In this document: positions 1 to 60,362 of the stretch, piece after piece
Position numbering within the stretch: the first letter of the stretch is position 1
Layout of the letters: every line of letters starts with the position of its first letter
NCBI GenBank assembly: GCA_008632985.1
Contig: QPGO01000130.1
Coordinates: 1 to 64,000 of the forward strand
Direction of reading: 5' to 3'
Origin: Psammoneis japonica
Taxonomy: Eukaryota
Length of the DNA stretch: 64,000 nt
Position numbers and translations under genes: made by a program
Notes under the pieces: model-generated
Databases searched by the model: none
What the model saw: only the letters and a program-made list of their open reading frames with translations
What the model was told of the DNA's origin: nothing

Positions 1-435
1 TCTGCCCGCCCTCCGCAGCACTGTCCAGAAGAGTGCAATTGGCTCCTCCTCTTTTAGGTGGAACTCTCTAGATCGAAGTCTGAAACCGAAAGATTTTGGA
101 TTGCCGCCCTCGCACATCAGAAAATGGAGCCATGACGATTGCCTGCACCAGTCATTTTGCTGCATTTGCGCCGGGGTTCGAATAATCACAAACACATGAC
201 GGTTGTTTCGTGCGCACTTTTGCGGACCCACGTGACATGACTGACATGCGTCAGTGCATGGTGCTGGTTGTTTTGCTTCTGACCGTTCTGTCTTCTGTGA
301 GGTTTCATGAGGCTGTCTGTGCATGTTGATGTTGCCAGTTGTGCACGTTGATGTTGTCCAAGGCAAGCTGCGTTGGATAAGTGAATGTGGAAATGTACGA
401 AATTTACGCATTGTCACAGTTTCTTTGCCAAACAG

Positions 436-1014
436 TCAGTCCTTGTTGTGGCCACACTCAATCCGCGGCGGCTCAAGTGAAAGTCCATGTGCATGCATTT
501 TGCCATTGATGCGGTTGTCTTTGCCAACAGTCATTTGCAACTTGCTCAATTCCATTTTTCTGGCCACACTTCTTCTGAAGGGACTTTGCTTGCTCCTTCT
601 CCTGCTCCCCANNNNNNNNNNNNNNNNNNNNNNNNNNNNNNNNNNNNNNNNNNCCGCTGCATGTGCTGCCTTTAGCTCCTCCATGGTTGAATCATCCTTG
701 GGTGCGACCGTTGTTTCCACATGATGACTGTCCGCTGTCGTGTTGTCTTGCACAAGTGCAGAAGTGACATCAAAATTTCCCGAGGTGAGGTCAAACGCCG
801 CTCTTGCTTCTTCCAAGGTAGTCTCCTCTTCGTCTTCCTTGTTCATCAATGACTGAAGAAGTTCCGCACATGTCTGCACCTTTTTCTTGTCCTCACCAGT
901 TTTCTTTGGCTCGTCTGCCTTCTTTGTTTGTTGTTGCAAATCCATGTTTTCTCTGTTGCTGCATTTTCTGTGATGGTTGCGTTCGCGTTTCTTGGTTTGT
1001 TGGTTAAAATCCAT
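436..1014 (-). CDS. Hypothetical protein with possible UBA-like helical motif; interrupted by an assembly gap
   Basis: 192-aa ORF with ATG; LEEARAAFDLTSGNFDVTSAL resembles UBA-like motifs; GTAAATTT motif about 30 nt downstream. Confidence 0.3.
   Translation of the reverse strand: MDFNQQTKKRERNHHRKCSNRENMDLQQQTKKADEPKKTGEDKKKVQTCAELLQSLMNKEDEEETTLEEARAAFDLTSGNFDVTSALVQDNTTADSHHVETTVAPKDDSTMEELKAAHAAXXXXXXXXXXXXXXXGSRRRSKQSPFRRSVARKMELSKLQMTVGKDNRINGKMHAHGLSLEPPRIECGHNKD
612..653. other. Assembly gap (N run)
   Basis: 42 N bases. Confidence 0.99.
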
Positions 1015-1160
1015 TCGACGTTGTGTGACGCATGTGCAGATTTCTGCGCAATGTGCTGATCTAATCGAAATGTTTTATTTTACGAAATTTCCGCATTTTT
1101 ACGGTTGGGGTCGCTGAACAGTTGTGCAGTCGTTGAGCATCCTAATCTGGTGTTTGCGCA

Positions 1161-4100
1161 CTACATTGACATTTCTGCATGCTGTTGCTGAGAAAAATGC
1201 GCGGCGCTTCTCTCCTTCATGAGTCTCATCAAGGCTTCGTAGCCTTCTGGGACCTTGCATTTTCGCAGGTCCTTGCTTGGTGGCTTTCGCATGAACAGCC
1301 CTTCTCTGGTCTTTACTCTGGAGAGCACAACATGCACCCAATTCTGAGTGTAGCTCCAAGAGTGTGCAAACAACTGCGGGACTCCACTCCCTTGCCATTC
1401 ACATGCCCTGCAGTGGCATTGTTGATGACAAACGGCAGCTGGGTTGCCTTCAGTTGGAAAGTGTGCCTTTGTTTGTCGCCTTCTTCTAAAGTTGGGCTGG
1501 GCTTGGCGATGCAAGCCCTGAAAGCATTTGTTTTTGGCTCAACTAAAAACTTCGCGGGGTTGATGCTTTTGTTGCAGTGTTCCAATGCAATGTGGTCTAC
1601 CTGACCAGCAAGTGCAGCAGGAATGCCAATGTTGTTGTCTAAAGTCACCAGTCTTGGTTCCTGTCCTGGTTTGAGAACGACCTCATCAACAGTGGCTTGC
1701 GCTCCGTTTGCTTGACCGTTTGCTGCATTTTCGTTGAAAGGTGTCATGACTCTGCATCTTCTGTAAATTCGTAAGACTGGATCCATTCTTCCTGATTGCA
1801 TGATGACGTCTCCTTCACCACAGTTGTTCCAGAAGCTGTTGCAAACTGGAAATGGTTGGCAGAGTCTCGTGCCATTCTGCACCTGCAAGTCGTCACTGAA
1901 AATCAACATTGAGTCAAGGACGTCTCCATCTCTTCCATGCAGTGTTTCCACTCTTTTTTCGAACAGGCCAGTGTCAATTGCATCTCTGTCCTTATTTGCG
2001 TGCGCAGCACAGCGGAGGTCACTGGGCAGATCATCTTCGTTCTGAACCACTCGTTCGTTGATGTGCTCTGTGTCATCAACTGTGATCTTGCCAGCGCGGA
2101 ATCTCTCAAGCAGTTTTCCCCATGATGGATCGTCTTTAAACCTGTGCACACCATGAAGTTCTATGCAGCAGTTGATCCACTCGTGAAACTCGGGACGTGC
2201 ATCTTTGTGTGGTGGTTTCACTCCTTTTCCGACTGGTTCTAGTTGCCTGAGGTCACCTGCGAAAACAATGTTGATGCCACCGTGCGGCTTGCTTAATTCG
2301 CTCTTCAATGCTGTTAAATTCTCATGGAGTTTTTCTAGTTCTCTCTTGCTTGCAAAAGAAATCTCGTCCACCACCAAAAGTCTCGTGTCTGACCATGCTT
2401 CAATTTGCTCTTCGGTTGTTTGCTTTCTTCTCATGAGGCATGCAACTCGGTGGATTGTGTCCCCTTTGAGAACAGTCGCAGCCACTCCGGTCAGTGCAGT
2501 CACTCTGATTGTGCTTGTTGTGAACGGCTGCTCAATGAGCGAGCAATGCTCTCTTCCGCATTCCACGACGAGGTCTGTTGTGGTTGATTTGCCACTTCCA
2601 CCTGCACCATGTAAAAAACACACAAGTTGCAACGTTCTGCGTCTTTGCACTTCCACGAGTTTCTTCAATCGGCGAAGGTTTGTTGCGAATTCGTGTCTGC
2701 CATTTCTCCTGTTGAGTCCATTGCGTGACGTCTCGTCTTGAAGAGCGTCTTGGCAGTGAGTGAGCACAAAGGTTCCTGCTAGAATTTCAAAGGCACGCTG
2801 CTGTTGCCCATCCAGTCTTGCTTTCCAGCCCAGTCTACGACACTTGCTGCAGATCCGTTTGCTTGACATACATCGACGTGTTCTTCCAAACCTGTCATGT
2901 CCTCAAACGACCTTCTTGTTCTTTGCGTTCTAGTCAGAATCACTCGAACAATGTCGTCTCTTGACAGTGGTCTGCTGTGGATGTGTTGTTGCACTCCTTC
3001 ATTCTGGTCTTCCTCGTCGGTGTCATCGCCGCCCTCTAGATTCTCAAAAAGTTGTCGTTCATCAACCTGGCTTTCCTCGTTTGGTGGGTCAGTGTGCACA
3101 TCTGCCAAGCATTTGCAGCCACCCATGTGTGGACCTTTCTGTCTTGCACGTTTGCCGCTCAAATGCGCAGGAACAACTGCTTGGTCGCTCAACCCAATGT
3201 CATCGTCTTCTGGCTGCTCTGCCATTTCTTCCAAGAGTGCATCCAGCAGTTGACCCTGAACGGCGCCTGAAAGACCTTCTTCCTCGTCACTTTTGCAACA
3301 GTCAAACGCAACGTCAGCAGGTCTAAATTGCTCCGTCTTTCTTTGCAGATCGTCAGATGCACTTTTGAGACGAAGGCAGTTGGACTCAGCATCCTGCAGG
3401 TTCTGCAAGAAGTTCAAGTTTTCCTCTGCAATGACACCGGCTGCTGCGGAGAGTTGGAATTCACACAGGTGTGTGTGGGTCATTGGTTTGAGTTCCGTCA
3501 TTGTTCTGCAAGGCGCAAACAAGGCTGATGCCAACTTGCAGCACAATTCTTTGTCTGGTGTTGTTGGTTGCTGCAGATCTACAAGGCAACTGCCAAACTT
3601 GGCTGCATCAGGAAAATCACGCTGAAGCACTTTTGACAATTGCGGTTGCTGTCGCTGTCTGACACCTTGAAGAAACTTGTTCTTTGTTGAATCACAAGAC
3701 GGGTGCCTGTGCGCTCTGTCATCGAACATCATCATGCCGTGTTCGTTTTTCCTTGTGTTGCGAAGAACTTCGTGTTCACTAAAAAACGCAAACGGACCAA
3801 GATTCTCCAGTGCTGTTGGACGACACAGGCAGTGCAAGGCCTGGCATTGGAAGAACGGTGTGTCGCCAAAATGGGCTACAGTCGCAGACACTTCGTCTCT
3901 TTCTAGTGTGCTGATGATGTCTTTCAAGGGGCACCATGCGGTCAAATGAGATCAGATGAAACGGCTTCCGTTCCTTGTCATGTAAGACGCAAGTGGTGGT
4001 CCAATGACGTTCGTCTTGTCATGCGAGCAAGCACCCCACATGAGACGTCTGATTGCTTCCGATGCATCAGATGCGTGTTTCCGTAATTCCGTCGCCATCC

Positions 4101-6813
4101 TGTTCGTAGTTCGAAGCACTTCGTCGCACGATGCAGTGTCATCTTTCTGGGCATCTTTTAGGATGCACTCAATCGTGCATTGAGCAGACGGTCCAGGCAT
4201 CAACAAAGCAATGTTTGTGTTGCATGTCAGTTTTGATCTGCTTGTTGCAGGGCACGACACGTTTTGAAAAGCATCGCACTTTCTCCTCTTCGGAACAACT
4301 TCCTTCACGTGCCGATGCGCAAAAGTTCCATCCCAGCTGAACCACTTTATCTGAGTGTCATCTGCGTTCCTTGCCAAATTATTTGGACACGAAGCAGCTG
4401 GTTGCCTGTGATGGCAGTCACCCAGTTTGAGCTCCTCTCGTTTCCTTTTCCTTGACTGCGTGTCCAGTTCCTCGTGTGGGGTTTTTTTACGCATTTTACG
4501 TGACTCTGCGCATTTGGGAAAACACGACTTCGTAATGTGCATGTGATGGTTGTAAGCTGCGTCCGGCGTGCATGCCTCCATTGTCCCTTGCAGACCACTT
4601 CGCTGGCATTGTGCACACATTGCTTTTAGTCGCTTTGCATGGTTGTCTGGACAGCAAGTCAGGCCAGGCACACGGTGCCGTGACTGTAAAAAGCTTTCTA
4701 CAAACTCGACGTTTGTCCAGCACTTGGTGCAGTGACGACAACAAGCAAACATTCCGTTCTTCGACTGCTGGCCGTCTTTGTGCCTCAGGTTTCTTAGCTG
4801 TTGGTCGTCTGCTGCTTTTGAAGAGGTGCGACACATTTTTGGCACTGTGCAGTCGTGATCGAATGCTTCACACAACGCGTTAGTGCTGAAGTCCTTGCCA
4901 CAGATTAATTCCGTGCTGCAGATCTTCTGAACTGTGTTGGTGAGGTGCTCAGCACCTTCGCGTCGGATCTGTCTCATTGGCGAATGCAGTTTCTCTCTTG
5001 CATTGTTGATCGATGCGAACCAGATCTGCATGTGTCCGTGTGCTGTCAGACGTCCCTGCTCCTCAACTGTGGCTAAAAATGCGGCTGGCCTGCCAATGTA
5101 GAAGTTAAAGTTTTCTCTTGGTTGGTTGGTGCTCAGATCCCAACCCACTGCCTCTTCTGTTGCAATGTCAAACAAGCACTCGAATACAAAGGCTGTTAGA
5201 CCGGGAAACTTTAGACGCAGTTCATTACGTTGCTTGGCCCTGCCAGCAAGAATTTCGTCCGTCAGTTGTGTCACGTCTTCGTTTGGGTCCAGGATGACAC
5301 CCGAGTGCAGTTGCACAAGAAACAAATTTGCATCGTCCGGACTGACGGTTAAGAAAATGCCACCCTGACCAAAATGATGCTGATGAGTTTCGGCATTTCT
5401 CCTCATTTTCTTTGCTGCTTCGTTGCTGTGTGGCAGAGACGCAGATGCAATGTCGAGTGCGCGCAAAAAGTGGTGCCCGAGTCCATGGTCTCTTCTCTCG
5501 CCCAAGTTGCGATCACAAACAGCTCTGTCCACATCGTCCACTGTCAGCTCGTTTGCAAACTGTGCAGCCTGATTCTTGTCCCTGACTTTCCACCCTGCGC
5601 TCTGCAGCATCCTTTGCTTCATTGTCAAGTTGCAGCATGTTAACATGAAGAGCTGCTCATGGAAGTGAGGCTGGGAAATCCGTGCCAAGTGGTCGGCACA
5701 GTGTGCAAGGTTGGTGCTGTCTGCAAGACTTCCGTCTTTCTTCATTCTCATCTCATTGATTCCTCCTCTGCCAAAAGGAAACTGCAGCAGACACGCGTCA
5801 ATGAAGTTGTTTCCTTTGAAATCACTCGCAGATTCTTCAGACAACTGTGCTTGCACCTCTAAATCAAATCCGTTGGCAGCAGCTTCGTGTGCAAGATCTT
5901 TGAAGCAGCCCAGGTTGTGCTGACCACCAGTCGCAGGAGACATGGTTCCATCAGGAAAGCAAATGTGAAATGACTCTGAGGTCTCAACATTTGCATTTTC
6001 TCCTTCTTCTTTGCTGGTGCCATCGACAAGTGCGGGATTCCGCAGATTACACCCAACTTCATCTAGATTTGTCTGTTGGCACACCCACTCTTGGTTGTGG
6101 CACAACAGCCATTCCATCGCCCTTGGCATGCAGTGCGTCCTAATTCTGTTCTTTGAGCACGCAAGTTGTCTTTGCTCCAGAGTCATCTTTCCAGTCATCA
6201 GCACAATCACATTCTGATGTAAATTCGGCACGTCAAAGTGCACAACAGTTCTCACGATGCTTTGCATCTTGACTTTGTAGCGTGTCAGACTTCCCTGAAG
6301 CTTCTTCTGTTTGCCGCCAAGGCAACTGAAGCAGTGTCCGCATGTTTTCACTGGTGTGAGCATTGCCAATTCTACTTTGGTTGGAGACAACAGTTCGTGC
6401 GGCGGGGTGCCGAAACAGCAGTTGTTCACCATCGCGTACATTGGCATGACGGCTCTTCCCAGGCTTCTTCAGCATTCGCTGCAGCAAGTGAATCCGTTGA
6501 CGCGTCGTCTGTCTTCCTGTGCTGCGCATTGGGCGCGGGGAGAAAGCAGCAGGTCTTTGATCCAACCAGCATCTTCATGCTCTGCAGTGCAGCAGGACTT
6601 GAGACGATCAGATGCGCTGTTCCAGTCTGAAGGGGTGAGCAAGTTTCTTGCTGATTCCAATGTTTTGAGTGGCAAGTGGCAAACTTCTCTAGGTTTCAGC
6701 AGAACGTCACAGACTGAACATGCGTGTGGTCTAAATTCTCCATCTCTGTGTGGATGAAGCATCTCAAACTTTCTGTTGATTGCGTTGCAAACACGGGAGT
6801 TGGCCTCGTCCAT
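1161..6813 (-). pseudogene. Helitron RepHel (Zn-finger/DUF6570-like region, HUH Rep, PIF1-family SF1B helicase), frameshifted
   Basis: ORF pieces 6469-6813, 3952-6447, 2779-3945, 1313-2869 and 1161-1514. Rep motifs FLTVSPDD, VEEQGRLTAHGHMQIW and degenerate YxxxYxxK (CTIECILK). Helicase motifs GAGGSGKS, LLVVDEISF, FAGDLRQLEPV, HRFKDD, (H)VVLSRVK. Confidence 0.92.
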
Positions 6814-6899
6814 TTTAATTTAAGCTGACACTTCAACTCAACAAATTTCAAGAAGTTGCTCAGTGAAAACAGTTGTTTTTTCAGTGCGATCACCGTGAA

Positions 6900-7580
6900 G
6901 CTGTGATCGGTGCTGTCCAATCACCACAGCGATGTGTGTTTTCTCACCACCTGCAGCACTGCGACTGGTGTCGTCCAGCCACCGCAGTGGTTCTGTCCAG
7001 TTGATCAACGAACCGCATCGGTGCCATCCGTTCACTGCAGCGCTGTGTCGTCTTCTCACAACCTGTGCAATCAGGTCGCTGTGAGCACTGCGACTGGTGC
7101 TGTCCAGTCACCGCAGCCGGGTCAATCAGTTGCTTGACGAACTGAGTCGGTGCTGCCCGATCACCGCAGTGTTGTGTCGTGTTCTCACAACCTGTGCGAT
7201 CAGGTCTCTGTGAGAGCTGTGACTGGTGTCGTCCAGTCACCGCAGCTGAGCTTGTGCATTGTCTCACAACCTGCGTTACGAGGTGCAGCGCTGTGTTGTT
7301 CACTCACAACCTGTGCAATCAGGTTGCTGTGAGAGCTGCGACTGGTGTCGTCCAGTCACCGCAGCCAAGTGAATCAGTTGCTTGACGAACTGCGTCGGTG
7401 CCATCCGATCACCGCAGCGTTGTGTCGTGTTCTCACAACCTGTGCGATCAGGTCTCTGTGAGAGCTGCGACTGGTGTCGTCCAGTCACCGCAGCTGAGCT
7501 TGTGCATTGTCTCACAACCTGCATTGCCAGGTCACTGTGAGAACTGAGAACTGCGATCGGTGTGGCCCAATCACCGTGGT
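6900..7580. repeat. Array of short bulged hairpins with a 248-bp higher-order period
   Basis: CTCACA-ACCTG-N6-CAGGT-N3-TGTGAG and (G)CTGCG-ACTGG-N6-CCAGT-CAC-CGCAG(C) units; CTCACA at 7055/7184/7263 recurs at 7303/7432/7511. Confidence 0.9.
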
Positions 7581-7735
7581 TGGATGCTTTTCGTTTCCCT
7601 TTGCGCAAAGGTTCTGTCACAAAAAAGTGAGACAAAAGTGTGCCTCTTTCACCTCGATGGAAGAGTGACGTGTGCGTTCCTCCCACGTCCTTCTTCGTGC
7701 CAGATGTGCGACATCCCACTTGGTTTCGTCGATGT

Positions 7736-7836
7736 TGAACATCCCATGGGATGAGATTTGGATCTTGTTCAAGTTGTTTTGACCATCTGCTCTGAACATT
7801 CCATGGGGCAAGATTCGGGTCTTGTTCAAGTTGTTT
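7736..7836. repeat. Two-copy tandem repeat, 57-bp period
   Basis: TGAACATYCCATGGG...TCTTGTTCAAGTTGTTT at 7736 and 7793. Confidence 0.8.
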
Positions 7837-8381
7837 CGGCAATCTTGGTGGTGGGCGCAGCTTTACGTAAATTCCGCAGAATCATGCTTTAACGAGTGGC
7901 GGGGCAGTTGAGTTAGTCGTGTGGCAATGACAATGCGATTGACGTCATTCGTGTTTCCAAAGTGCGCGCGAATCCTCCAAATGGGTGATGGGCCCACCTT
8001 AGCCAACTGCCGGCACAGCAGTGACTGCGATGGCGTCGACCGTTTGGCGACTAGATTTCGTGCGCGATGGCCACGCGGCAGCAACGGCTGAAATGCACAC
8101 GAAGCACAGATGGAATTGCACGTGATTTTGCGCATTTTCAGCAAACTTAGTGCGACTTTGCGTGCTCCGATCCTTGCACCTGTTTTGTTCAAATTGAGTC
8201 CATGCACCACTTGCAAGTGCTGACACCTGGAAGGTCACCTTGTTGCAGTTCAACGTGTTTGGATCTAGTTGCTGACGTTGCCAGTTCTCCTTGGCATGAT
8301 GCACGCAGCTCTGCTGGGTCTTTCTTGGCACTTCTGAACGATCGCACTTTTTGTTCCCACAATTTCTCTCCGACTGATTCG

Positions 8382-9254
8382 ATGGCACGCAAAAGAAACA
8401 CAACGACCTCCCTGGCTGCGAAAGCCAAAGTCGCCGAAACCAAACAGAAGAAGGCAAAGATGAAGTTTTCTGATGCTCTGTTGAAGAAACTAAGTCCGCC
8501 CTGCAAGACCAACGGCTTGACCGACGACGACCTTAAACCGGAAGACTGCCTTGCCAAGCACGGGTTCAAGCTTTCCAAATCCGCCGGTTCTGACGATGGC
8601 AGCCATTCTGACAAGGACGCCCTCCTGCGCTGCGCCACCGTCACTGTCGGCCGCAAGAAAGGCGTCGTTTTTCGTCTCCAAGCCAAGAATCCCCTTTCAA
8701 CCAATGTTTGGTCGGAGAAGGTTCTGTTTGATGACCTTCGCAGCAGGACTCCATGGGCGGTTCAAGTCGGATTCCACCCTTGCGCTGGCAGGTGGGTTCA
8801 CGAAGGCGAGTTGCAGACGAACACCAAGAACTGCACCATGCATCTCTTCTTCATCTTCCTTGAAGAAGTCCCAACCAATGCCAAAGTGCGCGGCCTCGGG
8901 AAGCACATTGCGAAGCAGCTCAATGATGACCCTGAGAACAACACCGAGGTCTTCGTTGAAGACGACTTCTTCTGGATGAAGGATGCTGTTTGGTCCGAAG
9001 TGATCGGCAACGAGGCGGCGCTCACCGAGCTTCAGAAGGAAGGTGGTCAGTTTCACATCGGTTGGTGCGCCCAAAACAAGAACTCACTTCACAGTTGCTT
9101 CTACGAGGGGTCGTTGCCTGTGGAACTCTGTCGTCTCATTGGAGCTCCGGCAGAAGAAGCTGGAGAAGAGGCCGACGATGATGTCGAGCTCAACTGCGAA
9201 GTTGACCTGAACGTCGATGATGACTTGGTGCTTCAGGACAGCGACGAAGACTGA
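8382..9254 (+). CDS. Hypothetical protein of about 290 aa (basic N-terminus, acidic C-terminus), probable element cargo
   Basis: ATG at 8382 (MARKRNTT...), protein-like composition, nearly Tyr-free; followed by a T-run and GTAAATTT. Confidence 0.65.
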   Translation: MARKRNTTTSLAAKAKVAETKQKKAKMKFSDALLKKLSPPCKTNGLTDDDLKPEDCLAKHGFKLSKSAGSDDGSHSDKDALLRCATVTVGRKKGVVFRLQAKNPLSTNVWSEKVLFDDLRSRTPWAVQVGFHPCAGRWVHEGELQTNTKNCTMHLFFIFLEEVPTNAKVRGLGKHIAKQLNDDPENNTEVFVEDDFFWMKDAVWSEVIGNEAALTELQKEGGQFHIGWCAQNKNSLHSCFYEGSLPVELCRLIGAPAEEAGEEADDDVELNCEVDLNVDDDLVLQDSDED

Positions 9255-9344
9255 GTTGTTTTTTTTTTTTTGCCGGTGCAGTGTAAATTTGTAAATGTTT
9301 GGCAAACTGAGTGTCGATTACAACTCAGCTTTTCCTCTGTCTCT

Positions 9345-10310
9345 TCAAGCATGTGCCATCTCCGATGACAACTCATCGTCACCGCGAAGCAATGGCGAAT
9401 TGAGCAGAGTAACTGGCGTGTGACGTCCAGTGCAGCGACAGTAAAAAAACAGTTCAGTTGAGTTCTTAAGCAAAATTGGCTGTTTCGCGACGGGTGAATG
9501 CTTCCGTTCCAAGTGTGTCGGAGTGGGACGTCGCATGTGCTGGCTGGTTGACTGAGAAGTCTCCTCTTTCTTGGTGTGCTTGTGGAAGACGAGATGTTTC
9601 ACGTCTCCGCTGTGCCACAAAAAGTCGCCATCATGGCAATCCGCCGTGAAGGACTCGCACATCCACTCTCCCGCGCACGACGCGAACAGCGGATCTAGCG
9701 CCACCACCACGGTCCCAGCACGACACAGTTTCGAAAGCATCGCCTCTGCCTTCTGCTGTGTGTTCTTGTCGTCGACCATGCGGGAGTTGCAGTTGTTGAA
9801 GAACACCTTGAGTCCTTTCTTTTTCCACAAAGGAGCCAGCCTCTCGTCCAAGAATGACTTGTTGATCAACTCTAACCCGCCGTTCGAGCGAAGGCCAACA
9901 CGATGAGCCCAACGTGCAGCCTCTTGGTGACGATCGTGGTTGGCCTCGATGCTCACCATGGTGCAACGGCGACGAAGTAACTTGAGCCCGATGCTGGGTC
10001 CGGCAACTCCCCCGCCCATGTCGACAGATGCATCGCAGGTGTGATTCATGCCAAGAAGGCGTTCGTTCAAAAACACTTCGCTGCTCAAAGCGAAGCCAAC
10101 TTCGCCGCCGTGCGAAGATCCGCTTCCGTCTCCGGAGACACGCCTGCTCTGGAACGCGGAGTTCGGAGCCGTTTGAAGATGAAACTCCCTGACACTTCTG
10201 CAACGATGGTTCATCGCATCCAACCTTGTGGCAACATCAACCTTGCTTGCAGCGGGTTCGACCAGATGTCGCGTTTCCAAACCAAACTGTGACGTGCGCA
10301 GAATGCACAA
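9345..10310 (-). CDS. DOT1-like class I SAM-dependent methyltransferase (mutated)
   Basis: (H)GGEV, VDMGGGVAG (motif I), VSIE, KSFLD, VFFNN and GTVVVALDPL occur in the order typical of DOT1 family proteins; start uncertain. Confidence 0.62.
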   Translation of the reverse strand: MCILRTSQFGLETRHLVEPAASKVDVATRLDAMNHRCRSVREFHLQTAPNSAFQSRRVSGDGSGSSHGGEVGFALSSEVFLNERLLGMNHTCDASVDMGGGVAGPSIGLKLLRRRCTMVSIEANHDRHQEAARWAHRVGLRSNGGLELINKSFLDERLAPLWKKKGLKVFFNNCNSRMVDDKNTQQKAEAMLSKLCRAGTVVVALDPLFASCAGEWMCESFTADCHDGDFLWHSGDVKHLVFHKHTKKEETSQSTSQHMRRPTPTHLERKHSPVAKQPILLKNSTELFFYCRCTGRHTPVTLLNSPLLRGDDELSSEMAHA

Positions 10311-10789
10311 AATTACCGTCGCGCCCTCTGTGTGCGCGAAATTTTCAAACGCAGCGTGCCACCTCTACCTGCGCATGGAGCGACGTGTGAAGTCATTTTA
10401 AACAGATGTGTGGACGCGTTGAAACAATGAGACGCCTTTGGGCGATAAAATTTGTTTTGAATCTCGGCCTGCTTCTCATCGTTGCCGTGCTTGTACATCC
10501 GTGTAATTCAAACGCACGAGCTGGCACGGCACGCAACGCACTTCTACGCAAGAACTCGCACTGAGATTGCCGTGGGATGATCCTCCCTCCGCAGAGACAA
10601 AAACAACGCGACAACACTTCCGTCATCACACTTTGAAACACATTTCAAATTGAGACACACCATGTCGCAACTGCCTTGTGCCTCGCTGCGTCGTCCTGCC
10701 AACGACAAGCACTTGTCGCGATCGAGTTACAGCCGGTCTCGACAGTGTGGGGGGTTGGGACGTGCAGCTCGCAGCCCGACAACAAGCAA

Positions 10790-10980
10790 ACACTTCTCGC
10801 GATTGGGTTTCGACCCCACTCCCCTGGAGTCCACCGGTCCCTGTCAACAGAGTTTTGCTTTGGGTGCTCTTGAGGCAACGGAAAGCAGACACATCTCTTG
10901 ATTGGGTTTTGACCCCACTCCCCTGGAGTCCGCCGGTCCCTGTCGACAGAGTTCTGCTTTGGGCACTGTTGAGACAACAG
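10790..10980. repeat. Two-copy tandem repeat (about 99-bp period) in the divergent intergenic region
   Basis: GATTGGGTTTYGACCCCACTCCCCTGGAGTCC...ACAGAGTT at about 10801 and 10900. Confidence 0.85.
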
Positions 10981-11207
10981 TGACAGTGTCAAGCAGTGGA
11001 ACATTTGCCGGCAAGTTTGCACACACATTCTCTGCGAACACCGCATCGTCAATGCGCACCAGGACACACGAGAACGTGTTGAGGGCTCAACCGCCACTTC
11101 GCAAGGCCCACCGCAGCCGCAGGCGAATCCGCAGCCGCGCCAGCAGGAAAACATCCAAGATCACTTGCCTCGTTCCACTCGCACCGTGCGCCACTAAGAG
11201 TCTCTCC

Positions 11208-45333: not shown

Positions 45334-45354
45334 CTCCCTCTCAACCGAGAGAGC

Positions 45355-51300: not shown

Positions 51301-51946
51301 TGAACAGAACAGATCCAGGGCAGTCTTGGCAGTCCGAAAGATGGTTGAACTTGGTCTCGATTTTCTCGCGAAAGGTGTCAGTGATTCTTGAGTGAACGAG
51401 AAGTTGAGAGAGCCCGATGTCGTCGAGCTCGATCTCGTCGTACTTGGTGTCATCGGTGGCTGCTTTCCCAACCGTGTACTCGTTCACGAGATCGGTCACA
51501 GCAAACTCGTGAAGATGGTCGAAGACACACTGAACCTTGTCGTCGCTGTCCTTGACATGGTAGAACGTCTGCTGACCGTGGGCTTCTACTAGATCTCGAA
51601 TGGTCTTGACGAAATGGTCCTTGTCAAGCTCGTTGATGGGACCGTCCGAAATCTCAAGTCGACCGTTGAACTTGGAAGTCATTGCGGAAGCTTGTTGATC
51701 GCGGAGAGATCGTTCTATCGAGTCGAGAGCCTTGGGATGACGGCGCTGAGAGGCGAATCGGCAGGTTCCATCGTTGGATTGTTCGCAGTTGTTGTTGAGT
51801 TTGGAACCACCAATGTAAACCCCGTGGGTTGGGTGAATTCCACCACGTGACGGCTTGGTTGGAGCCGGAGGAGCGGTCGCCGCGGCGTTGGCGGCCATTG
51901 CATCGGCAAACGCCTTCGCCAGAACATCTGGATCGATGGCAGCCAT
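45355..51946 (-). pseudogene. Copia gag-pol polyprotein; one frameshift near 47.85 kb; RT active site mutated
   Basis: WKWCATC..H..EH (gag), MDTGAT (protease), HARFGH..CEAC, VSVDH and HQNGIAER (integrase), HVDD (for YVDD), YVDSDFAG, EDNSAC and RTKHI (RNase H). Confidence 0.95.
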
Positions 51947-52094
51947 GACAGAGAGTGCAGCATGAGAGGTTCTTGTTAGAGTGAAGACGAGAGAAGCGAG
52001 AGAGACTCAGCCATTTCCCGGGTTTGCTTCAAAATCAAAAACCGAAAGCGTCCGTGACGATGACTTGGTCAGGAGCTCTCGTCAACGCGCAAAT

Positions 52095-52109
52095 TGGTCT
52101 CTGTGACCA
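52095..52109 (-). promoter_or_regulatory. Putative primer-binding site
   Basis: TGGTCACAGAGACC abuts the 5' LTR on the minus strand, with the first T shared with the LTR end. Confidence 0.55.
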
Positions 52110-52343
52110 GTCGAGATGCAGTCCTGCAGCTGAGCAGGATGGATGAGACCTCGGAGGTTGGCAGCAATGTGAATGGCGACAGAGGTAAACAGACGCTTGT
52201 TGAAAGTCGTTGTCTAGAAATTATGACGAATGTCGTTGCTTCTGTTTGAATCGATTTTGTGATGAGCTGATCATTTCGAAGAGAAAATCTGAGTCTGGGT
52301 TGCAGTCGTGAGATGCGACCAGAATGAGCGTTGAGTCGTGACT
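52109..52343 (-). repeat. 5' LTR
   Basis: Direct repeat of 45100-45333. Confidence 0.95.
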
Positions 52344-53163
52344 CCTGTCCCACAGTTCGCTTTGTCAAACTGGCCATCAGCATTCTGCTTTCTGTGCTCT
52401 GCAATTTTTGTTTTTGCGGCAGTGCCAGTTTCTCCATTTTGCACACTTTGCCACCTTGTTGATTGCCCTGGCTGGCAACATTGCTGGCAGATGAGTGGAT
52501 CAGCAGGGAAACATCTCAAAGGATTCTGCTGCATGCTGCAGGCCAAAGTGAGAACCCCCGGGTGGGACTCCACTGCACTGTGCATCCAGGTGAGGGAGTG
52601 TGGTGGACAACAGGATCCAACCCCCCTCTGACAAAGCACTGTGCTGGCATTTCCCAGCTGTGGCACATGGCCGTTGTTGGGCTCTGCAGTGTGTGGGCAC
52701 TTGCCCAGCAAATGGGAGGCATGCAGGCAGGTGTGCAGAACACATGATGTTGTGGTTTGCACCTGCCAGGTGCAACATGGCCACACAACATTGCTGTGGT
52801 GGTGTGATGGCACAGCAGGAAGTCTTGCTGATGGCATGGTTTGCAGTTGCCAGGTGACACTGAACACACAACTGCACATTGGAGCTGGCTTGCGATTGCT
52901 TCTTGCTTGACATTGCAAACAACTGCATGCTGTGAGAGAGTGTGCTGCTGCCCTCCGCTTGCGTGAGAAGCAAAGGTGGCTGCACTTCAAAGCACTTGTT
53001 ATGACAGCCCTTTTGGCTGAGCAAAAGCCCTCCAAACTGTCCAAAAAATGGTGCTGCACAGGGGTGCTTTGCTTTGAGGTGTGATGCTCCTAAAGTGGCG
53101 CTCCAAGCATCCTCCTCAGCCCCCCCCCCCCCATGTCCTCTCCATTGTGCTCACTCCTTTTTT

Positions 53164-53292
53164 CAATTGTGCATTTTTTCATCATGTGAAAATGCTCTCT
53201 TGACAGCACAAAATCCTCTCTGTTTGTGCTCGCTTCTTTTTTCCATTGTGCACTTTTTGTCATGTGAAAATGCTCTCTTGACAGCACAAAAT
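53164..53292. repeat. Two-copy tandem repeat (about 79-bp period)
   Basis: ATTGTGCA..TTTT..CATGTGAAAATGCTCTCTTGACAGCACAAAAT occurs twice. Confidence 0.8.
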
Positions 53293-53964
53293 GTGTGTGT
53301 GTGTTCTTCTGCCCACCGGTGCACTCCACAGATTTGCTCCCCACATCTTTTGCAGCCTCATCATTGTTTCCCCACAAAAGATCTCCTTTCTTGCAGCACC
53401 CACACTTGCAGAAAAGAGCAGCAGCACTCCTCTGGTGGTCTGCAGAAAAATGCAGTTTTTTGGCATGCACTTGTGCAGCATTGTTGACAAAAAGTTGCAG
53501 TTGCCAAAACAAGAGCATGGGAGCCGCCAAGATTGCCTGGGAGATGTCACTGTGTGTTTTTGCTTCCTCTTTTTTTCATGGAAGCTGCGGTCAGACTCAA
53601 GGGTCTCAAGGGTCCAGAGGGGGAGCAATTTTGCCAGAAATTAGGGAATTTCTCAGAAAAAGAAAGCAGGAGCCCAGTTTTTGGTGAGTGCTGCTGGTGT
53701 GCTGCCACACGGACATTGTGCACGCTGTGCACTGCACGCTGAATGGTGCTCCTGTTGCACTGGTGGGAGCTCACAACCCATGTGCTCCAGACAAAATGAC
53801 CTGGTGGACATCATCAGCCCCATCTTTTTTGTCTTTTGCTTTGGTGCTGTTCCTGCCAGCACTGCTTGGAAGCAGTGCTCCATGCTTCATTTTGAAACAG
53901 TTTGTCATTGTCAGCACAAGTGTGGTTAAATCAACAGTTGCTGTGAAAGAAAGTGGCCTGGTCT

Positions 53965-54365
53965 CACATTGGCATGGCAGCTCTGGGACTTTGTTTCAAC
54001 TTGCTGTGCTCTGGAGGTTGCTTTGTCTGCTTTTTCACACACACTTCAAACCGTGCTGGTCCAGTCCCATGTCAAAATTTTTGCCAACCCCAACCCTGAC
54101 AACCCTGGCCCAAATCTTGTGTTGGCATGGTGGCTCTGGGCTTTTGTTTCAACTTGCTGTGCTCTGGAGGTTGATTTGTCTGCTTTTTCACAGACTTCAA
54201 ACCATGGTCCATGTCAAATTTTTGCCAACCCCAACCCTGACGACCCCAACCCAAATCTCATGTTGGCATGGTGGCTCTGGGCTTTCGTTTCAACTTGCTG
54301 TGCTCTGGAGGTTGATTTGTCTGCTTTTTTGCACACTTTGAACCATGGTCAATGTCAAATTTTTG
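53965..54365. repeat. Three-copy tandem repeat (about 140-150 bp)
   Basis: TTGGCATGG..GCTCTGGG...TTTCAACTTGCTGTGCTCTGGAGGTTG at about 53969, 54122 and 54263. Confidence 0.88.
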
Positions 54366-55994
54366 CTGAAATCAATGCCAACTGGCCAAACAAAAAAGTC
54401 ATTTTTTTGCAGCTGTGTGCTTGAGACATTTGTTTCTCTTGGGTGGGTCAGTTGGTGACAATTGAGTTTGTTTGAAAGGGACAAAGAAGCAGCCACAATG
54501 AAGGATGCAAGAAGGCAGCTTTGTGAGCACTTCCACTGAGCACAGATTGCTGTGGGTCTTTTGCATGCTGTGCAGCAGTGCAGCAAAAATGAGAGCTTGG
54601 CTCATGCAAAAGTAACTTTGGAGCTGCCACCAACCCACCTGTGCCCCCATTCAAGGTTTTTGGCCTTTTCTTTCCATCTTCAATGGCGACATCAAGCCAG
54701 AAAAGCAGCTTTGTGCATGCATCAAGCCAGAAACAAGGAACTCTCCCCACAACCTTCAACCTGTCCATTGTTCGAAAAAAAATCAATTTGCGAGGCAAGC
54801 TGTCAGATTTGCGAGGTGAGCTGCAAGATCTGGAGCTTGAGATCTTCTTTCTGGACCAGAATCCCAATGCTTCCGTGAGTCAGAAAGAAACTGTCCAAAG
54901 CAAGATTGAAGGCAAAAAACATGACATCAAAATCAAGCAAAAAGAATTGAAGGTGCTGGAGGCGCACGTTGGTGACTCCACACTCGGATCGGCTGGGGGC
55001 CACAACAGCCATGGTGACTTCGGATCAACTGGGGGTTGCACAAGTCCCAGTGTCTCATAAAGTGGAGTTGTGTTGGTGGCTTGAGCAGCGTGGTTTTTTG
55101 GATTGGAGGAATGGAACATCTGCAACTTTTGGAAGAATTTCCAGGTCAAGCATGCCATCATGTGACTGCATCAGCATTGGGTCGAGGGTGGGGTGGGGGG
55201 AGTTGGCAAGTGAGCTCGCTCATCATGAAGGGTAAAGGGGACTCTAAGGATGGCTCAATGTGTGCAGAAAAGCAGCAATGCCTGCTGCCACACAAGCAAA
55301 AATGTGGCAGCAGCCACACAGTCTCTACAGAGCTTGTGCATTTTGTCTTTAGTGCTTCATGTTGGACATGAACAAAACTTGGATCAGCAGACATCACAGT
55401 TTCTATTAACACCGCCTCTTTGTCATCCCGTGCGTGTCCTTTCAACACAAGAGAGATGCATGGATTCCAGGAAGCTGCCACAGTGTAGCGAGATGTTTGA
55501 CGAGGTTGTGGGTTCTGCTGGCACCACAGAGATGACTGGTCTAAAAGAAGACTGTGGGTGGCCATCAAGTGACAGACTTGGAAAAGGCTTTGAGTCTGCT
55601 TTCCACCATGCATGTTGGCTGATGATGCACAACGCCATGAGAACCCTGCACTGTGCAGTGCAGCACCCATGGCAAACATTAAAACACAAGAAATCCCAAC
55701 TTCCAATTGTCCCAGTTTATCTGACCACAGAGCAAAGATGAGCTTCACAACTGGGAAATGACATGTGTCGTTCTTGTTGCAATCTGGGTCACAGTGTGAC
55801 ACTTTGTCTGTGGCTTGATGCAGCTGCTTCAAGGAGTCTAAAATGAAAGATCCAAGTTGCAATTTGTGGGATTGAGGAAGTGCCATCATGCAGAGGCAAA
55901 TGATGTCCTGATGTGCATTCACATGTGGGGAGTGAAAAATCAACCATCAACAGTGCATCCCAAATGAGCCGTGTGCTTCTATGCTCTTGAGAAA

Positions 55995-56380
55995 TTCAAC
56001 AAGTGAGGGCATCTTGTTCCAGCACCAACAGGCATTTCAAGAGTGCTTCACAATTTTGTTCAAAGTTCTTGCCACCCAGAACCTGAGTTGTGCACCATTG
56101 GCTCAAAATCCTTTGCATCTTGCATGAAAGGTCCATGTGAAAAGGAAGGAATGCCCAAATTCAAAAGTGGCTGTCTGCCATTGAGTTGGCAAGACAACGT
56201 TGCACATGCTCGTTCATGCACTTTGAACTTTTCATTCACATGAAAGCTGTGAGCAGCAAAGACAACAAGGATTTTGACTCTCCACCTGACGAGCTGTGCA
56301 CCATTGGCTCAAAATTCCTAGAATCTTGTGTAAAAAGTCCTTGCGACAAGGAAGGAACATCAGAGCGTGCATTGCAGTGA
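55995..56380 (+). pseudogene. Hypermutated paralogue of about 39170-39440
   Basis: AACCTGAGTTGTGCACCATTGGCTCAAAATCCTTTGCATCTTGCATGAAAGG versus AACCTGAGCTGTGTACCATCGATACAAAATCCCTTGCGTCTTGCGTGAAAGG. Confidence 0.75.
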
Positions 56381-56974
56381 TCCAGACCACCTTTCTCACA
56401 GCAACTTTTTTAATCTGTTGCAGTGCAAAATTCTGATGTTTCAAAGCTTGACAGTTGTGCAGCTGGCAACCACATGTCAACTGTGACAGATGAACATTTT
56501 TATGCTGTGAGATCAGACCCCCCCCTCCCCATGAGGAAAACATGTTTGACTGTGAAAGAGGGACACATTTTCCCTGTGAGAGTGCCCACCCTCTGTCCCT
56601 GCAAAACCTGCAAATTAAAATCATTTGCGCTGCACCACGAACATTCTGTTTTGTTGTTTGCATTTAAATTGAATGATGCTGACGGAGACAACACTCTAGA
56701 GTTTGCAGCAGCAGCTGCAACAGCTCGCTTTCTTGAAGTGCCACTGCTGGCAGCCACCTTGTTCATTGCCAAAAAAAGTGCAGAATGCGTTGTGAGAGTG
56801 CAGTGTGGATGAACTGACACTGTCAACAGGAATGGCCACATGGGCTTGCCGGTGCATCCGGTGCCACTGATTCTGGAGCAGGCAAGTTTGCAGCACCGCA
56901 GAGAGACTTGAGAAGCCTTTTAAAATGAGCCTGACAACTCAGGCAACCTCCAATGGGTTGCCTCCCCACTCTCT

Positions 56975-57262
56975 GCCTCTGCAGTCTTTCTGGATCTGGA
57001 CATGGAAATTGGAGAAGACGGATGCAACGCAAGTGAACATGTCAAAAACCAATGAAGCTCTTTTGTGCATGCCCTTTTTGAAGAGTGTCACATGTGGTGA
57101 ACAACTTTTCATGTGTGCAATTCTGAGAGCTGCAGGAACAAGCACTGCCTGCAGTCTTTCTGCATCTGGGTGCAGAAATTGGAGAAGGCGGATTTGTTGT
57201 TGGCAAATGTGTCAAAAACCAATGAACCTCTTTTGCACATGCCTTGTTTAAAGAAGTGTCAT
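56975..57262. repeat. Two-copy tandem repeat (about 170-bp period)
   Basis: CTGCAGTCTTTCTG.ATCTGG...GAAATTGGAGAAG...TGTCAAAAACCAATGAA occurs twice. Confidence 0.8.
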
Positions 57263-59389
57263 TTGTGGAAACTTGTGATGATTCTGGGTGCAAAACTCTG
57301 GCATGCAAGATCACACCAACACTGCAAAAAAGCAAGTTTGTGATGTGCGTGCACACAAAAACATGCCAGCAGCTCAGCATTCTGGATGTGGTGGTGGATT
57401 CGTGGCAGACACTTGCAATCATGAAACTCAAGCTGTGCCTGAATCAAAACCCATCTTGACTGACCAGAAGGACAGCAGGTTTCACCATGCGTTGAGCTGC
57501 TGTCATCAGCCAATGGTTGTTGATTTGCAGATTTGCGACCACACGCAGGATCCACGGGCACCCACGTGAATCATGACAGCAGTCTGCACACTCTCGTTTT
57601 TCAAATTTTGGGGAGAGGGTGCACTGTCACAAAGTGTGCAGAAAATTGTGCATGTAAAAAACACACTGAAAATGCCACAGTCCAATGGGCTGCACAAATC
57701 TGGGAAACATGAAGAAAAACAAAGGTTGGTCACGTGCGTGTGTGAAGCACTGCATGTGCAGTGGACTGCACATGTGCAAAGACACACGCACGTGAGTGAG
57801 GAGGACAAAGTCAAAACCAAGTTCAAATTGATTGCAATCAAAAGGAAACCAAACCATGCATCACAAAAGACAGATTTCAGTCCCAATTGCAAATGCAGCA
57901 TTGCACGCATTTGATTGAAGCTTGTGCAAGAAAAGTTGATGAGACATCAGATGAAATGCACAAAACAGCTGCATTTTGTTGAGCACTTTTGTTGGCATTT
58001 TTTTTTAAAAATTCTGCTTGTCAACTCTCATGAACTCTTTGTTTGCCACAGCAAAACGAGTTTTTTTTTTGTGTGGCACAACTCAGAGCACCCAACACAA
58101 AGACAACCAACATGGCACATTGCCGTTTGGAGTCATTGCAGTTGACAGTGCCCCGAAGCCATGCGGGGCGATTGCTGTCACAGCAAGGTGCATTGTGATG
58201 GCTTGGCTTGGTGTGCTGTTGTGTTGCCATCTTGTTTTCACTTTGTGACTCACCAGCTGTTGCATCAGCATTTCTTGCATCATGACAGGTGTGACCGACC
58301 ATCATCAACAGAGTGGGTGTTGTCGTTTTTGTCATCCACAGGACAGAATCTGGTGGAATGTCAAACAAATGGGTGAGAGCATGCACCACAATGCTGTTGT
58401 TCTGTTGCATCAGATTGTCCTTTTTTGCATTTCATGTTCCCTCAGCTGACCCTTGCTTTTTGTGCCACTGTTTTCTGCTTTACAGTGCAAAATCACGGTT
58501 GTTCATGTCATGGGCATGATGGACACAGATGATGGCAAGCATGTCTCCATGCTTGCCTTCAGTTCCCTCAACACTGCTGTGGAGAATGCCAATTTGGAGT
58601 CCTGTGTGGCTCCCACAGCCACTGCTTGACCTCCAGCACTGCCGTCAGAAATTGCAACTGCTTCACCCATCATTTCTTGCACTGATGGACAAAAGAAAAA
58701 ACAAGGTGAGCCTCCACTGATCTTGGTTGCATCCATTTGCAGGAGACCAGCCCTTTGCCATTTGTCCACCAAATGCCTTTTTCTCTCTTGTTCATTTGCA
58801 CAAGCTCACGCGCACCACACAAAAAACACACCCTGCACTGCGATCCTCTGAGAGGCATCCTGACAAGGAAGTCGCAGCAAAGGAGACATCCAGGCACTGT
58901 GGATGAGGCTCTCTTGGCCAACAAGAACAAAAAAGCTGAGCAGAAGACTGCCAATGTAATTGTTTGAGGGTGTTGCTGTCAACACATCTAAAATGCAGGT
59001 TGAGCACAACGTGGTGCAACAACCACCAGTTTAAAATTGGAAATGTGCGTGTCTGTCGTCTGTTGCACATGCACTGCTCCATGCTGCAGCTTGATTGAAT
59101 GTGCACCTTGCAGCTGTAGAAAAATGCTCTTTCGGCAAACACATGGTCTCACACATGGAAAGACCTGTTGACCAAAGAAAGGGAGGAAGAGGCCTGTGCG
59201 GGAAGAAGAACTTGTGCACAACAAGAGAGCGATGAAAACATTCGTTCACATGTGTCAGTGTGCAGTGCCAAGATGTGTGTGCATCTGCACACCGTGCAAA
59301 AAAATCTGTGCCAATCCATCCTGGCAAACAAAGAGAAATTTACAAAGGAAAGTGGCAGAAACCACTGTGTTGCAGCCTCTGATGAATGA

Positions 59390-60362
59390 ACAAATTCAAA
59401 AGTGGCTGTCAACCATTGAGCAGGTGAGACAACATGTTGCATGCTCATTCGTGCACTTTGAACTTTCCATTCATGCAAAAACTGTGAGCAGTGCAGATGA
59501 CAAAGATTTTGAGTTTCCACAAAGTGAAGACCTTTGCAGCAAGCAATGCTTCAATGCTCAATGCTGACAATGCATTGTGAGCAGTCGTGTCTTTTTCTTC
59601 TGGAGGTGCTTTAGATGAGGGCTTGCAAAAAGGTGGTGAATTGGATGCAGTCAACACCAACAAATGAGCCAGGTTTTGATGCTGATGGAATCATGTTCAA
59701 GTTGAATGCGTCCTGGTCTGTTGATGAGCACATTGTCAAGCTCTTTCTTGGCATGATGGCTGCTTTGGGGTTGGTTGTCATTGTGCATCCCTTGATGCAT
59801 GTTCTGTGCATCAGCTCTCTTCACATGTTGCTTGTTTTCTTTGTCAAGGCCAAACGTGAAGCAAACAGCATCAGAGAGGCTGCAAAGCTTTTGTGCAGCC
59901 CTGTGTCCTGCTGCACGCACTCCATTTTCTGTCCTCAAGTTGGAGGCCAAGAAAGTGGAAGTGCTGTTTCTTTAAACCACCATTTTCTCTGACAACATTG
60001 TTGAAACTGCCACACTGGGTGCACTTGAAGTGCTTGTGAACTTTCTTCTCTGTCAGAAGCTCAAATCAAGCCAGTGAAGCATGCGCAGTTGTTGGGGTTG
60101 TGTTTTTCTCTTTTTTTTTTTTTTAAATTCTGCATCTCTGTGAACAGGCAACTTTGAGATCTCCCGGTGTTTATGAACAACTGGCAAGCTGTGCAGCAAC
60201 CGGGAGTCCAAAAGAGGAACTTCAAGATCATTGCACATCGCAGCACCCCAAAACGAGCTGTCCACAGCTCTTTTCGGAAGGATTGTGGGTCTGCTCTCAC
60301 GAGAACGTCCTTGTCATGATTCTACCTGCAGTTCCAAATCCCGCAACTCTCCCAGAAGAGAG
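59390..60362 (+). pseudogene. Hypermutated paralogue of about 39320-40811
   Basis: Shared anchors TTTCTTTGTCAAGGCCAA, GCTCAAATCAAGCCAGTGAAGCA and GTCATGATTCTACCTGCAGTTCCAA. Confidence 0.8.

Follow-up and report, generated by a model that had tools for sequence, protein, structure and literature searches.

The window considered here is a 64,000-nucleotide stretch of nuclear DNA from the diatom Psammoneis japonica (GenBank assembly GCA_008632985.1, contig QPGO01000130.1, positions 1 to 64,000 of the forward strand), in which long, mostly uninterrupted genes are interspersed with islands of DNA, two of them holding recognizable transposable elements (TEs), that have lost nearly all of their TpA dinucleotides. 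The first of these islands, a block at 1-14500, consists of a decayed Helitron (1313-6468, minus strand; Pfam matches Helitron_like_N, DUF6570, and PIF1) and about 7.5 kb of unidentified sequence; the Helitron retains a Rep-region open reading frame (ORF) at 3952-6468 (-), matching Helitron_like_N and DUF6570, with a tyrosine content of 0.6%, and a PIF1-type helicase ORF at 1313-2902 (-) with 0.2% Tyr. A copia long terminal repeat (LTR) retrotransposon occupies 45100-52343 (-; Pfam RVT_2 and gag_pre-integrase), with LTRs at 45100-45333 and 52109-52343, a Pol ORF (RVT_2) at 45355-48294 (-; 0.6% Tyr), and an intact 5-bp target-site duplication, CCTGT, at 45095-45099 and 52344-52348. The copia insertion lies between a relic block (43741-45099), which forms its left flank and whose final five bases are the target-site duplication, and a block at 52345-60330 that is partly repeated (56-58 kb) and partly single-copy. 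Two further blocks, at 17401-21100 and 23101-25800, are paralogues of one another within a tandem unit of about 5.5 kb. In the gene regions, Pfam matches were obtained for PP2C, two DWNN/RING genes, and one PPR gene. The PP2C/cNMP-binding protein (29169-31103, -) gave 2144 matches in a protein search; among the best 120 of these, the highest identity was 71%, and the named matches came from the diatoms Ditylum, Nitzschia, Seminavis, Skeletonema, and Pseudo-nitzschia at 56-61% identity.

A preliminary description of this stretch, made from the letters alone, had claimed that its TE domains are almost devoid of TA while host genes have normal TA and Tyr contents, and sliding-window and block counts bear this out. 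The observed/expected (o/e) ratio of TpA is 0.04-0.23 across the six blocks, compared with 0.43, 0.52, 0.54, and 0.51 in the four gene stretches (905 TA in 26.5 kb), and Tyr amounts to 0-0.9% of the residues in nine block ORFs as against 2.0-4.6% in ten host ORFs. The blocks fall into two classes. In the Helitron block (134 TA, TpA o/e 0.16) and in copia (86 TA in 45100-52344, o/e 0.23), only TA has been lost, with CpG o/e values of 0.81 and 0.95, close to the 0.87-1.03 of the four gene stretches; the other four blocks have lost both dinucleotides, namely 17401-21100 (11 TA; TpA o/e 0.05, CpG 0.13), 23101-25800 (11 TA; 0.07 and 0.13), 43741-45099 (3 TA; 0.04 and 0.11), and 52345-60330 (40 TA; 0.07 and 0.23). 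This CpG loss (o/e 0.11-0.23) goes beyond what the preliminary description had emphasized. Block borders are sharp, within approximately 250 bp; for example, the final TA before the relic block lies at 43683, and none follows up to 44000. The spacer at 43251-43700 that adjoins this TA-free block is itself TA-dense (24 TA in 250 bp). TG and CA are correspondingly abundant (o/e 1.58 in blocks vs. 1.18 in genes), and GC content is 51.4% in the blocks compared with 48.8% in the genes. The blocks contain 2-8 times fewer TAA and TAG, though not fewer TGA, and consequently many long overlapping ORFs.

The designation of these blocks as TE domains holds for the Helitron and copia portions; for the remaining block sequence, which is partly single-copy, a TE origin can be presumed but is accompanied by no Pfam match. 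Outside the Helitron and copia, no Pfam family was matched in the depleted blocks, 6.5-14.5 kb included, and a Pfam scan of 94 stop-to-stop ORFs of at least 110 aa (86 from the blocks and eight from the gene region at 38.5-41 kb) returned as its sole result a sub-threshold hit to EAD2 (E = 0.0075, below the family cut-off). The Helitron Rep ORF gave no match when compared with solved structures, and the alignment of the PIF1 portion to a solved structure spans few Tyr residues. The Helitron region is interrupted by 42 consecutive N bases (612-653), and one further N (41033) lies immediately upstream of the PPR gene. Judging by the depth of read-derived contigs (4000-6000, vs. about 60 for single-copy DNA), the copia family numbers approximately 70-100 copies; by the same measure the 56-58 kb segment is repeated, and 52.7-56.0 kb and 44.0-44.7 kb lie at single-copy depth.

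The direction in which the blocks have changed can be read from their coding remnants. The preliminary description had proposed an A:T->G:C polarity on the grounds that conserved Tyr residues are replaced by Cys or His, and this proposal is upheld by four lines of evidence: the Tyr columns themselves, the base preceding A->G changes, the differences between the copia LTRs, and the comparison of a TA-normal with a depleted paralogue. All of the motifs it had named (VVHVDD, KHKAR, ETCAP, CRSVVG, DIACA, and HVVLSR) are present, and the homologue consensus is Tyr at the altered position of each except in the KAR motif, where the column is variable. Conserved-Tyr columns in copia Pol were defined as those with Tyr in at least 70% of 14 homologues of about 50% identity (Tyr 2.7-3.5%); among the 19 such columns, the window has Tyr in 2, Cys (TGY) in 7, His (CAY) in 6, and other residues in 4, even though 363 of 485 other conserved residues are kept (p=1.5e-8 for Tyr loss relative to these). 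Three ORF pieces of the Helitron, aligned with 20 normal homologues, gave a parallel result, with Tyr in 3, Cys in 15, His in 7, Phe in 4, and other residues in 5 of 34 conserved-Tyr columns, while 539 of 701 other conserved residues are kept (p=4e-16). Residues of catalytic importance have been affected: the YVDD motif of the copia reverse transcriptase reads HVDD (46432-46443, -, within VVHVDD), and in the Rep region of the Helitron the Tyr columns at aa 764 and 768, spaced four residues from one another, which we take to be the catalytic pair of HUH-Y2 transposases, both read TGC (Cys). In another frame than the helicase ORF, the Helitron also encodes HVVLSR (1317-1331, -), where homologues have YVMLSR.

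A test independent of Tyr was made at first codon positions, by collecting sites with G in the window for which A is expected from the consensus of the homologues (I/M->V, T->A, N->D, K->E, and S/R->G). In copia, T precedes 12 of 16 such changes but only 7 of 79 retained A codons (p=1.2e-7), and in the Helitron it precedes 15 of 19 but only 4 of 133 (p=7e-14). Taken together, the Tyr columns and the first positions therefore identify a change of TA to TG or CA at the level of DNA that is independent of codon phase and common to a retroelement and a DNA transposon. Such a change removes Tyr codons and alters other codons that contain or border TA, yet it is incapable of creating a new in-frame stop, given that under the genetic code TAA becomes TGA or CAA and TAG becomes TGG or CAG.

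The timing of the process has been recorded by the two LTRs of the copia insertion, which differ at nine substitution sites and one 1-base indel over about 235 aligned bases. Five of the sites are TA in one LTR and TG or CA in the other, three are TG versus CA doubles, and one is TG versus CG; hence eight of the nine are of TA type. Every one of the 12 base substitutions is a transition, and the copies agree at 12 of 13 CpGs. Both LTRs carry A->G as well as T->C changes. The TG versus CA differences are of the form expected from two independent hits on an ancestral TA. At least nine ancestral TA sites can be recognized, of whose 18 copies 11 have mutated, against one other difference in the entire alignment. 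The process therefore acts after integration and very much faster than the background; as a rough estimate, its rate might exceed the background by about two orders of magnitude.

Paralogous sequences extend these observations and bear on the targeting of the process. The tandem unit of about 5.5 kb joins a gene part, present in three copies with 87-91% identity and normal TA (the Cys-rich gene segment at 15717-17357, 21261-22981, and 25853-28071, -), to the doubly depleted block, present in two copies with 67-76% identity. The two depleted copies differ by 61 TG<>CA doubles in 1927 aligned nucleotides, whereas such doubles number only 3 and 1 in two pairs of the Cys-rich gene and 1 in 2594 nucleotides of the tandem DWNN/RING gene duplicates (31866-37984, +; 95% identical over aligned bases), a difference with p=5e-22 relative to the depleted pair. 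TA is kept at 68 of 76 sites in the DWNN duplicates and at 40 of 54 in the triplicated Cys-rich segment. The most direct comparison is afforded by a low-copy sequence in the gene region (39170-40811), normal in both TA and CpG, that provides an unmutated reference for both 56000-56285 and 59393-60360. Relative to 39323-40811, the depleted paralogue at the island edge (59393-60360) now has TG or CA at 21 of 35 TA sites, with two kept, and at 28 of 50 CG sites, with eight kept, while TG is kept at 50 of 67 and CA at 44 of 60 sites. Duplicated genes of 1.3-2.6 kb with 87-95% identity have thus been spared, single-copy DNA inside the islands has been mutated, and the low-copy paralogue has been mutated only where it lies inside an island. 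Since repeated genes are spared and mutation is confined to islands, targeting looks regional, set by the island or its chromatin state, rather than triggered by homology. The earlier characterization of the process as directed at TEs is accordingly retained with a restriction to islands, but its description as repeat-restricted was too narrow.

The gene-region paralogues have several features of their own. The two tandem genes encoding DWNN plus RING-finger (RBBP6-like) proteins, at 31787-33985 and 35322-37472, share 95% identity over 2.6 kb and supplied the reference for ordinary substitution. The Cys-rich protein gene (13-14% Cys, no Pfam match) has ORFs at 16078-17232, 21656-22777, and 26760-27917 (-), and the doubly depleted block follows two of its three tandem copies; the region of the third copy includes a direct duplication of a 548-bp segment at 99.3% identity (26115-27209). 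Within the TA-normal low-copy paralogue, a perfect (100%) 277-bp tandem duplication at 39809-40362 overlaps a 228-aa ORF without a Pfam match.

The spectrum of change is narrow and its sequence context well defined. Changes at TA are almost purely transitions, both in the LTR pair and in the Tyr columns, where Cys or His replacements number 35 and Phe replacements 5, with Ser, Asn, and Asp absent. The frequency of TA-centered tetranucleotides in TE blocks relative to genes ranges from 0.02 (ATAT), 0.04 (ATAC/GTAT), 0.06 (ATAG/CTAT), 0.08 (GTAC), and 0.11 (ATAA/TTAT) through 0.29 (CTAC/GTAG) and 0.36 (GTAA/TTAC) to 0.50 (CTAG), 0.52 (CTAA/TTAG), and 0.68 (TTAA). A simple model, fitted by hand on the four palindromes, in which the survival of the A of each strand is set by the base at +1 (T 0.14, C 0.28, G 0.71, and A 0.82), reproduces most of the mixed tetranucleotides. 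The preferred motif is T-A-Y (Y, pyrimidine) or, equivalently, R-T-A (R, purine); His-type changes, in a small sample, are preceded by a purine in five of seven cases. The pair of normal and depleted paralogues displays the same order, with A->G fractions of 0.55 at TAT, 0.38 at TAC, 0.26 at TAA, and 0.09 at TAG, and a fraction of 0.35 for A after T compared with 0.09-0.13 after other bases. AA shows no depletion, with o/e values of 1.22 for the blocks and 1.18 for the genes. No strand-coordinated, processive runs were seen in the paralogue pair, whose 21 sites, each resolved to TG or to CA, fall into 13 runs (p=0.82), and the events therefore appear to take place site by site on either strand.

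Hypermutation directed at TEs is known mainly from fungal repeat-induced point mutation (RIP) and from vertebrate APOBECs, both of which change C to T. RIP is the nearest known kind. As in RIP of ascomycetes and the RIP-like TCG hypermutation of some basidiomycetes, mobile DNA in the window is filled with both-strand transitions tied to a particular dinucleotide, at a rate that greatly exceeds the background; the domain borders are sharp, and the elements are left dead. Unlike RIP, which converts C:G to T:A mostly at CpA, creates TpA, and lowers GC, the process observed here converts A:T to G:C, destroys TpA (o/e 0.04-0.23), is accompanied by slightly raised GC (51.4% vs. 48.8%), and makes no stop codons. 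RIP also mutates repeats above a few hundred base pairs and about 80% identity, a trigger at odds with the sparing of gene duplicates at 87-95% identity and the mutation of single-copy island DNA. RIP is, moreover, premeiotic and dependent on RID/DIM-2. According to one report, diatoms carry DNMT4 enzymes that are related to RID and of unknown function, and TEs of Phaeodactylum are CpG-methylated via DNMT5a (PMC9998398).

The decay of CpG through deamination of 5-methylcytosine (5mC) offers a further parallel, in that a self-complementary pyrimidine-purine step is lost to TG or CA on either strand and the loss is restricted to silenced DNA; in four blocks, moreover, the two losses co-occur, and the CpG loss there has the CG->TG/CA form consistent with such decay. 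Nevertheless, 5mC decay acts on C and cannot remove TA, and in the window it has been much slower than TpA loss: copia and 1-14500 retain CpG at o/e 0.95 and 0.81 with TpA at 0.23 and 0.16, and the LTRs keep 12 of 13 CpGs while differing at eight TA-type sites. The assertion that the process at TpA is neither RIP nor 5mC decay has thus been sustained, the one running in the opposite direction and the other being unable to account for TpA loss where CpG is kept. Editing of minus-strand cDNA by APOBEC3, or of double-stranded RNA by ADAR followed by reverse transcription, shares with the present process the restriction to transitions, a neighbor-base preference, and the targeting of mobile elements, but such editing precedes integration, affects one strand, and is limited to retroelements, whereas here both strands and both LTRs of one insertion have been hit, the Helitron and non-coding relics are affected, and strand-coordinated runs are not seen. 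In addition, the +1 preference of ADAR is G, compared with the pyrimidine preferred here. TadA and ADAT2-ADAT3 convert A to inosine with a required U or T at -1 (U33-A34 of tRNA, with a TAC-type preference), which matches the T-A-Y context of the window; A->G with T at -1 is indeed what is found, although T->C in R-T-A fits equally. Natural TadA and ADAT enzymes act on RNA loops, and the DNA activity of adenine base editors came from laboratory evolution.

The reality of the depleted sequence was examined in sequencing reads. No RNA data set was among those listed as containing the stretch. The runs of one sample contain it (share of words, 0.78), one of them, run X2, spanning 8 of 30 bins, and contigs derived from these reads at about 60x match depleted single-copy stretches over 0.4-2.1 kb with 0-1 differences (43993-45138, 52329-53122, 53263-54019, 54300-56386, 58790-59170, and 59169-60000). 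The only displayed differences between window and contigs in depleted single-copy DNA, at 44235 (TG vs. CG in the contig) and 59451 (CG vs. CA in the contig), are both of CpG type. Verification in reads, which the preliminary description had called for, has thus reproduced the depleted sequence in read-derived contigs and rules out mis-assembly, though not a platform effect, and it is not independent of the assembly. Copies of copia in the read-derived contigs differ from the window at 112 transition and 29 transversion places, and among 19 copia sites displayed, 11 are of TA type, including four TG<>CA doubles. The contigs also omit 43416-43655/6 and carry there 17-20-base variant inserts that differ from each other mainly by TG/CA swaps, so that copies of a further repeat display the signature as well.

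Comparison with homologues elsewhere indicates how widely the signature occurs. All 37 of the copia homologues have Tyr contents of 2.0-5.4%, and all 80 related copia loci from metagenomes have TpA o/e values of 0.41-0.91, with a single one of 665 1-kb windows falling below 0.25 (printed as 0.25, locus L034); a further 39 long Helitron homologues have 2.5-4.7% Tyr. The signature is thus not a property of these TE families. In a library of 1.8 billion proteins, by contrast, 9 of 150 Helitron homologues have less than 1.5% Tyr, all of them from ENA or JGI metagenome assemblies, and these Tyr-poor proteins are probably translations of hypermutated, dead elements. Eight such proteins (P0160, P0171, P0172, P0248, P0279, P0307, P0309, and P0312) have 0-1% Tyr and raised His and Cys. 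In an alignment of Tyr-poor proteins to 22 normal homologues, the Tyr-free P0312 (1875 aa) had Cys at 11, His at 9, Arg at 1, and Phe at 1 of 22 conserved-Tyr columns while keeping 408 of 462 other conserved residues; P0172 had 8 Cys and 6 His, P0171 had 3 Cys and 2 His, and P0160 had 5 His, 4 Tyr, and 2 Cys, whereas six normal Helitron controls keep 15-21 Tyr at conserved columns. Judged by these protein sequences, the same signature appears to be present in independent assemblies of uncultured organisms.

In sum, the TE-island DNA of this window has undergone post-integration, TpA-directed, transition-only hypermutation on both strands, with T-A-Y preferred and at a pace faster than that of CpG decay. 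The best overall explanation, to which we would assign an even chance, is that TpA hypermutation is carried out by an enzyme targeted to the islands, with adenine deamination as its likeliest chemistry. Such an enzyme would chemically change a base of chromosomal DNA in silenced chromatin, either on the duplex or where it has briefly opened; adenine would be deaminated to hypoxanthine, which would then pair with C, and the enzyme would be directed by chromatin or island state and not by sequence duplication. Tyr codons, catalytic ones included, have been erased along with TAA and TAG; no new in-frame stop can arise, so that dead elements keep very long ORFs. The CpG loss of the older blocks would reflect a separate, slower, and ordinary deamination of 5mC. 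Adenine deamination has been rated the likeliest chemistry because of the transition-only spectrum and the requirement of TadA and ADAT enzymes for T at -1. A full-text literature search, with most subscription journals outside its reach, yielded no description of TpA-directed TE hypermutation and no natural DNA adenine deaminase used against TEs.

Several considerations weigh against this explanation. The evidence consists of sequence, and the enzyme, the base modification, and the chromatin mark are all putative. Further, A->G in T-A-Y is indistinguishable from T->C in R-T-A, and adenine deamination and thymine modification predict identical data. The context estimates use gene regions as a proxy for the ancestral composition of the TEs, and many TA-type states are common to a large share of copia copies, some changes having thus arisen elsewhere and been carried along by transposition or duplication. 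The sequencing runs may be the assembly's own source, with the platform unrecorded, and the TpA state of the Tyr-free environmental Helitrons is deduced from proteins. Finally, the presence of the signature in none of the 80 related metagenome copia loci suggests that its taxonomic range may be narrow.

The foremost rival, distinctly less likely than not, places the initial lesion on thymine: within silenced islands, a TET/JBP-type dioxygenase or other enzyme would mark the T of R-T-A as 5-hydroxymethyluracil (5hmU) or 5-formyluracil, which would mispair with G and lead to T->C. An epigenetic mark would then be paid for in lost TpA, much as 5mC is paid for in lost CpG. Mispairing with G is a property of 5-formyluracil, and base J or 5hmU occurs at T-A in kinetoplastid telomeres and in dinoflagellate DNA. 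By this route, too, a palindromic dinucleotide would undergo transitions only, symmetrically and site by site, and a precedent exists in dinoflagellates, which are likewise protists of the SAR group (stramenopiles, alveolates, and Rhizaria), where thymine modification to 5hmU is enriched on repeats and silences TEs (PMC11572971). The accessible portion of that report mentions no mutational loss of TpA, however, and states that repeats with high 5hmU density are typically less diverged, CR1 elements excepted (PMC11572971); base-resolution mapping in Breviolum found 5hmU without a sequence motif (PMC11071213). No title on 5hmU in diatoms was among the matches listed in the literature search.

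The remaining rivals are considerably weaker. Error-prone repair, in which Pol eta-like patch resynthesis in heterochromatin, for instance after mismatches from 5mC deamination, would mis-insert opposite T in WA (W, A or T) motifs, is improbable and, of the three candidates raised in the preliminary description (patch repair, adenine deamination, and thymine oxidation), fits worst. The hotspot of Pol eta is WA, with A->G favored at TA, and T:G mismatches would be frequent in the four of six blocks that are CpG-depleted; nevertheless, mutagenesis of this somatic-hypermutation type is contradicted by the scarcity of transversions (none among the 12 LTR substitutions, and Cys plus His at 13 columns in copia and 22 in the Helitron against Phe at 1 and 4, with no Ser, Asn, or Asp), by the undiminished AA, by the loss of TA from copia and 1-14500 without CpG loss, and by a depletion that is near total, with ATAT at 0.02 of the gene level. 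Very improbable is the suggestion that the composition is intrinsic or selected, either as codon usage of the elements' own or because UpA-poor transcripts escape a host nuclease. UpA and CpG are under-represented in many RNA viruses, and the TA-type states common to many copia copies could be read in this way, but selection would hardly have destroyed catalytic or invariant Tyr residues (YVDD to HVDD, and the Rep pair to Cys), nor does it accommodate the altered non-coding relics and low-copy paralogue, the TA-site differences between LTRs of a single insertion, or the relatives elsewhere with normal Tyr and TpA. Scarcely more credible is a sequencing or assembly artefact, whereby modified bases in TE chromatin would be miscalled and TA and CG read as TG or CA. 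Both dinucleotides could carry symmetric modifications, and the platform is unrecorded for runs that are perhaps the assembly's own data; still, contigs at about 60x agree with the depleted stretches over 0.4-2.1 kb, identical LTR contexts have been resolved differently, the outcome of TG or CA is random per site and per copy, and the Tyr to Cys or His pattern recurs in proteins from other ENA and JGI assemblies.

As TE-directed point hypermutation, the process in the window belongs to a known kind, but its enzymology may well fall into an entirely new category. If island-targeted TpA hypermutation is confirmed, it would entail either the adenine deamination of chromosomal DNA, an activity not known in nature, or a TpA mark that has gone unrecognized, and either the enzyme or the mark would be of interest to epigenetics and to the engineering of base editors. 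Several annotation oddities would be explained, including the near absence of TAA and TAG from the islands, the long ORFs that spuriously occupy several frames, and the Tyr-free "proteins" in public collections. LTR-based dating would be distorted as well, for the copia insertion seems 5% diverged although only one of its nine differing LTR sites is not of TA type. Moreover, the Tyr content of TE ORFs, TpA o/e, and TG<>CA doubles together offer a simple screen for the lineages responsible and subsequently for the gene.

Finally, the process may serve a defensive function. It can be proposed, tentatively and with somewhat more doubt than conviction, that some diatoms possess a genome defence that is the chemical mirror of RIP, in which an enzyme of TE chromatin, whether an adenine deaminase or the writer of a mutagenic TpA mark, would convert A:T to G:C at TpA and kill transposases and reverse transcriptases through the loss of Tyr without the creation of stops, and that such a defence may also exist in other, uncultured eukaryotes, those from which the Tyr-free Helitrons of metagenomes derive. 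If true, mutational genome defence would be extended to a major group of marine algae.

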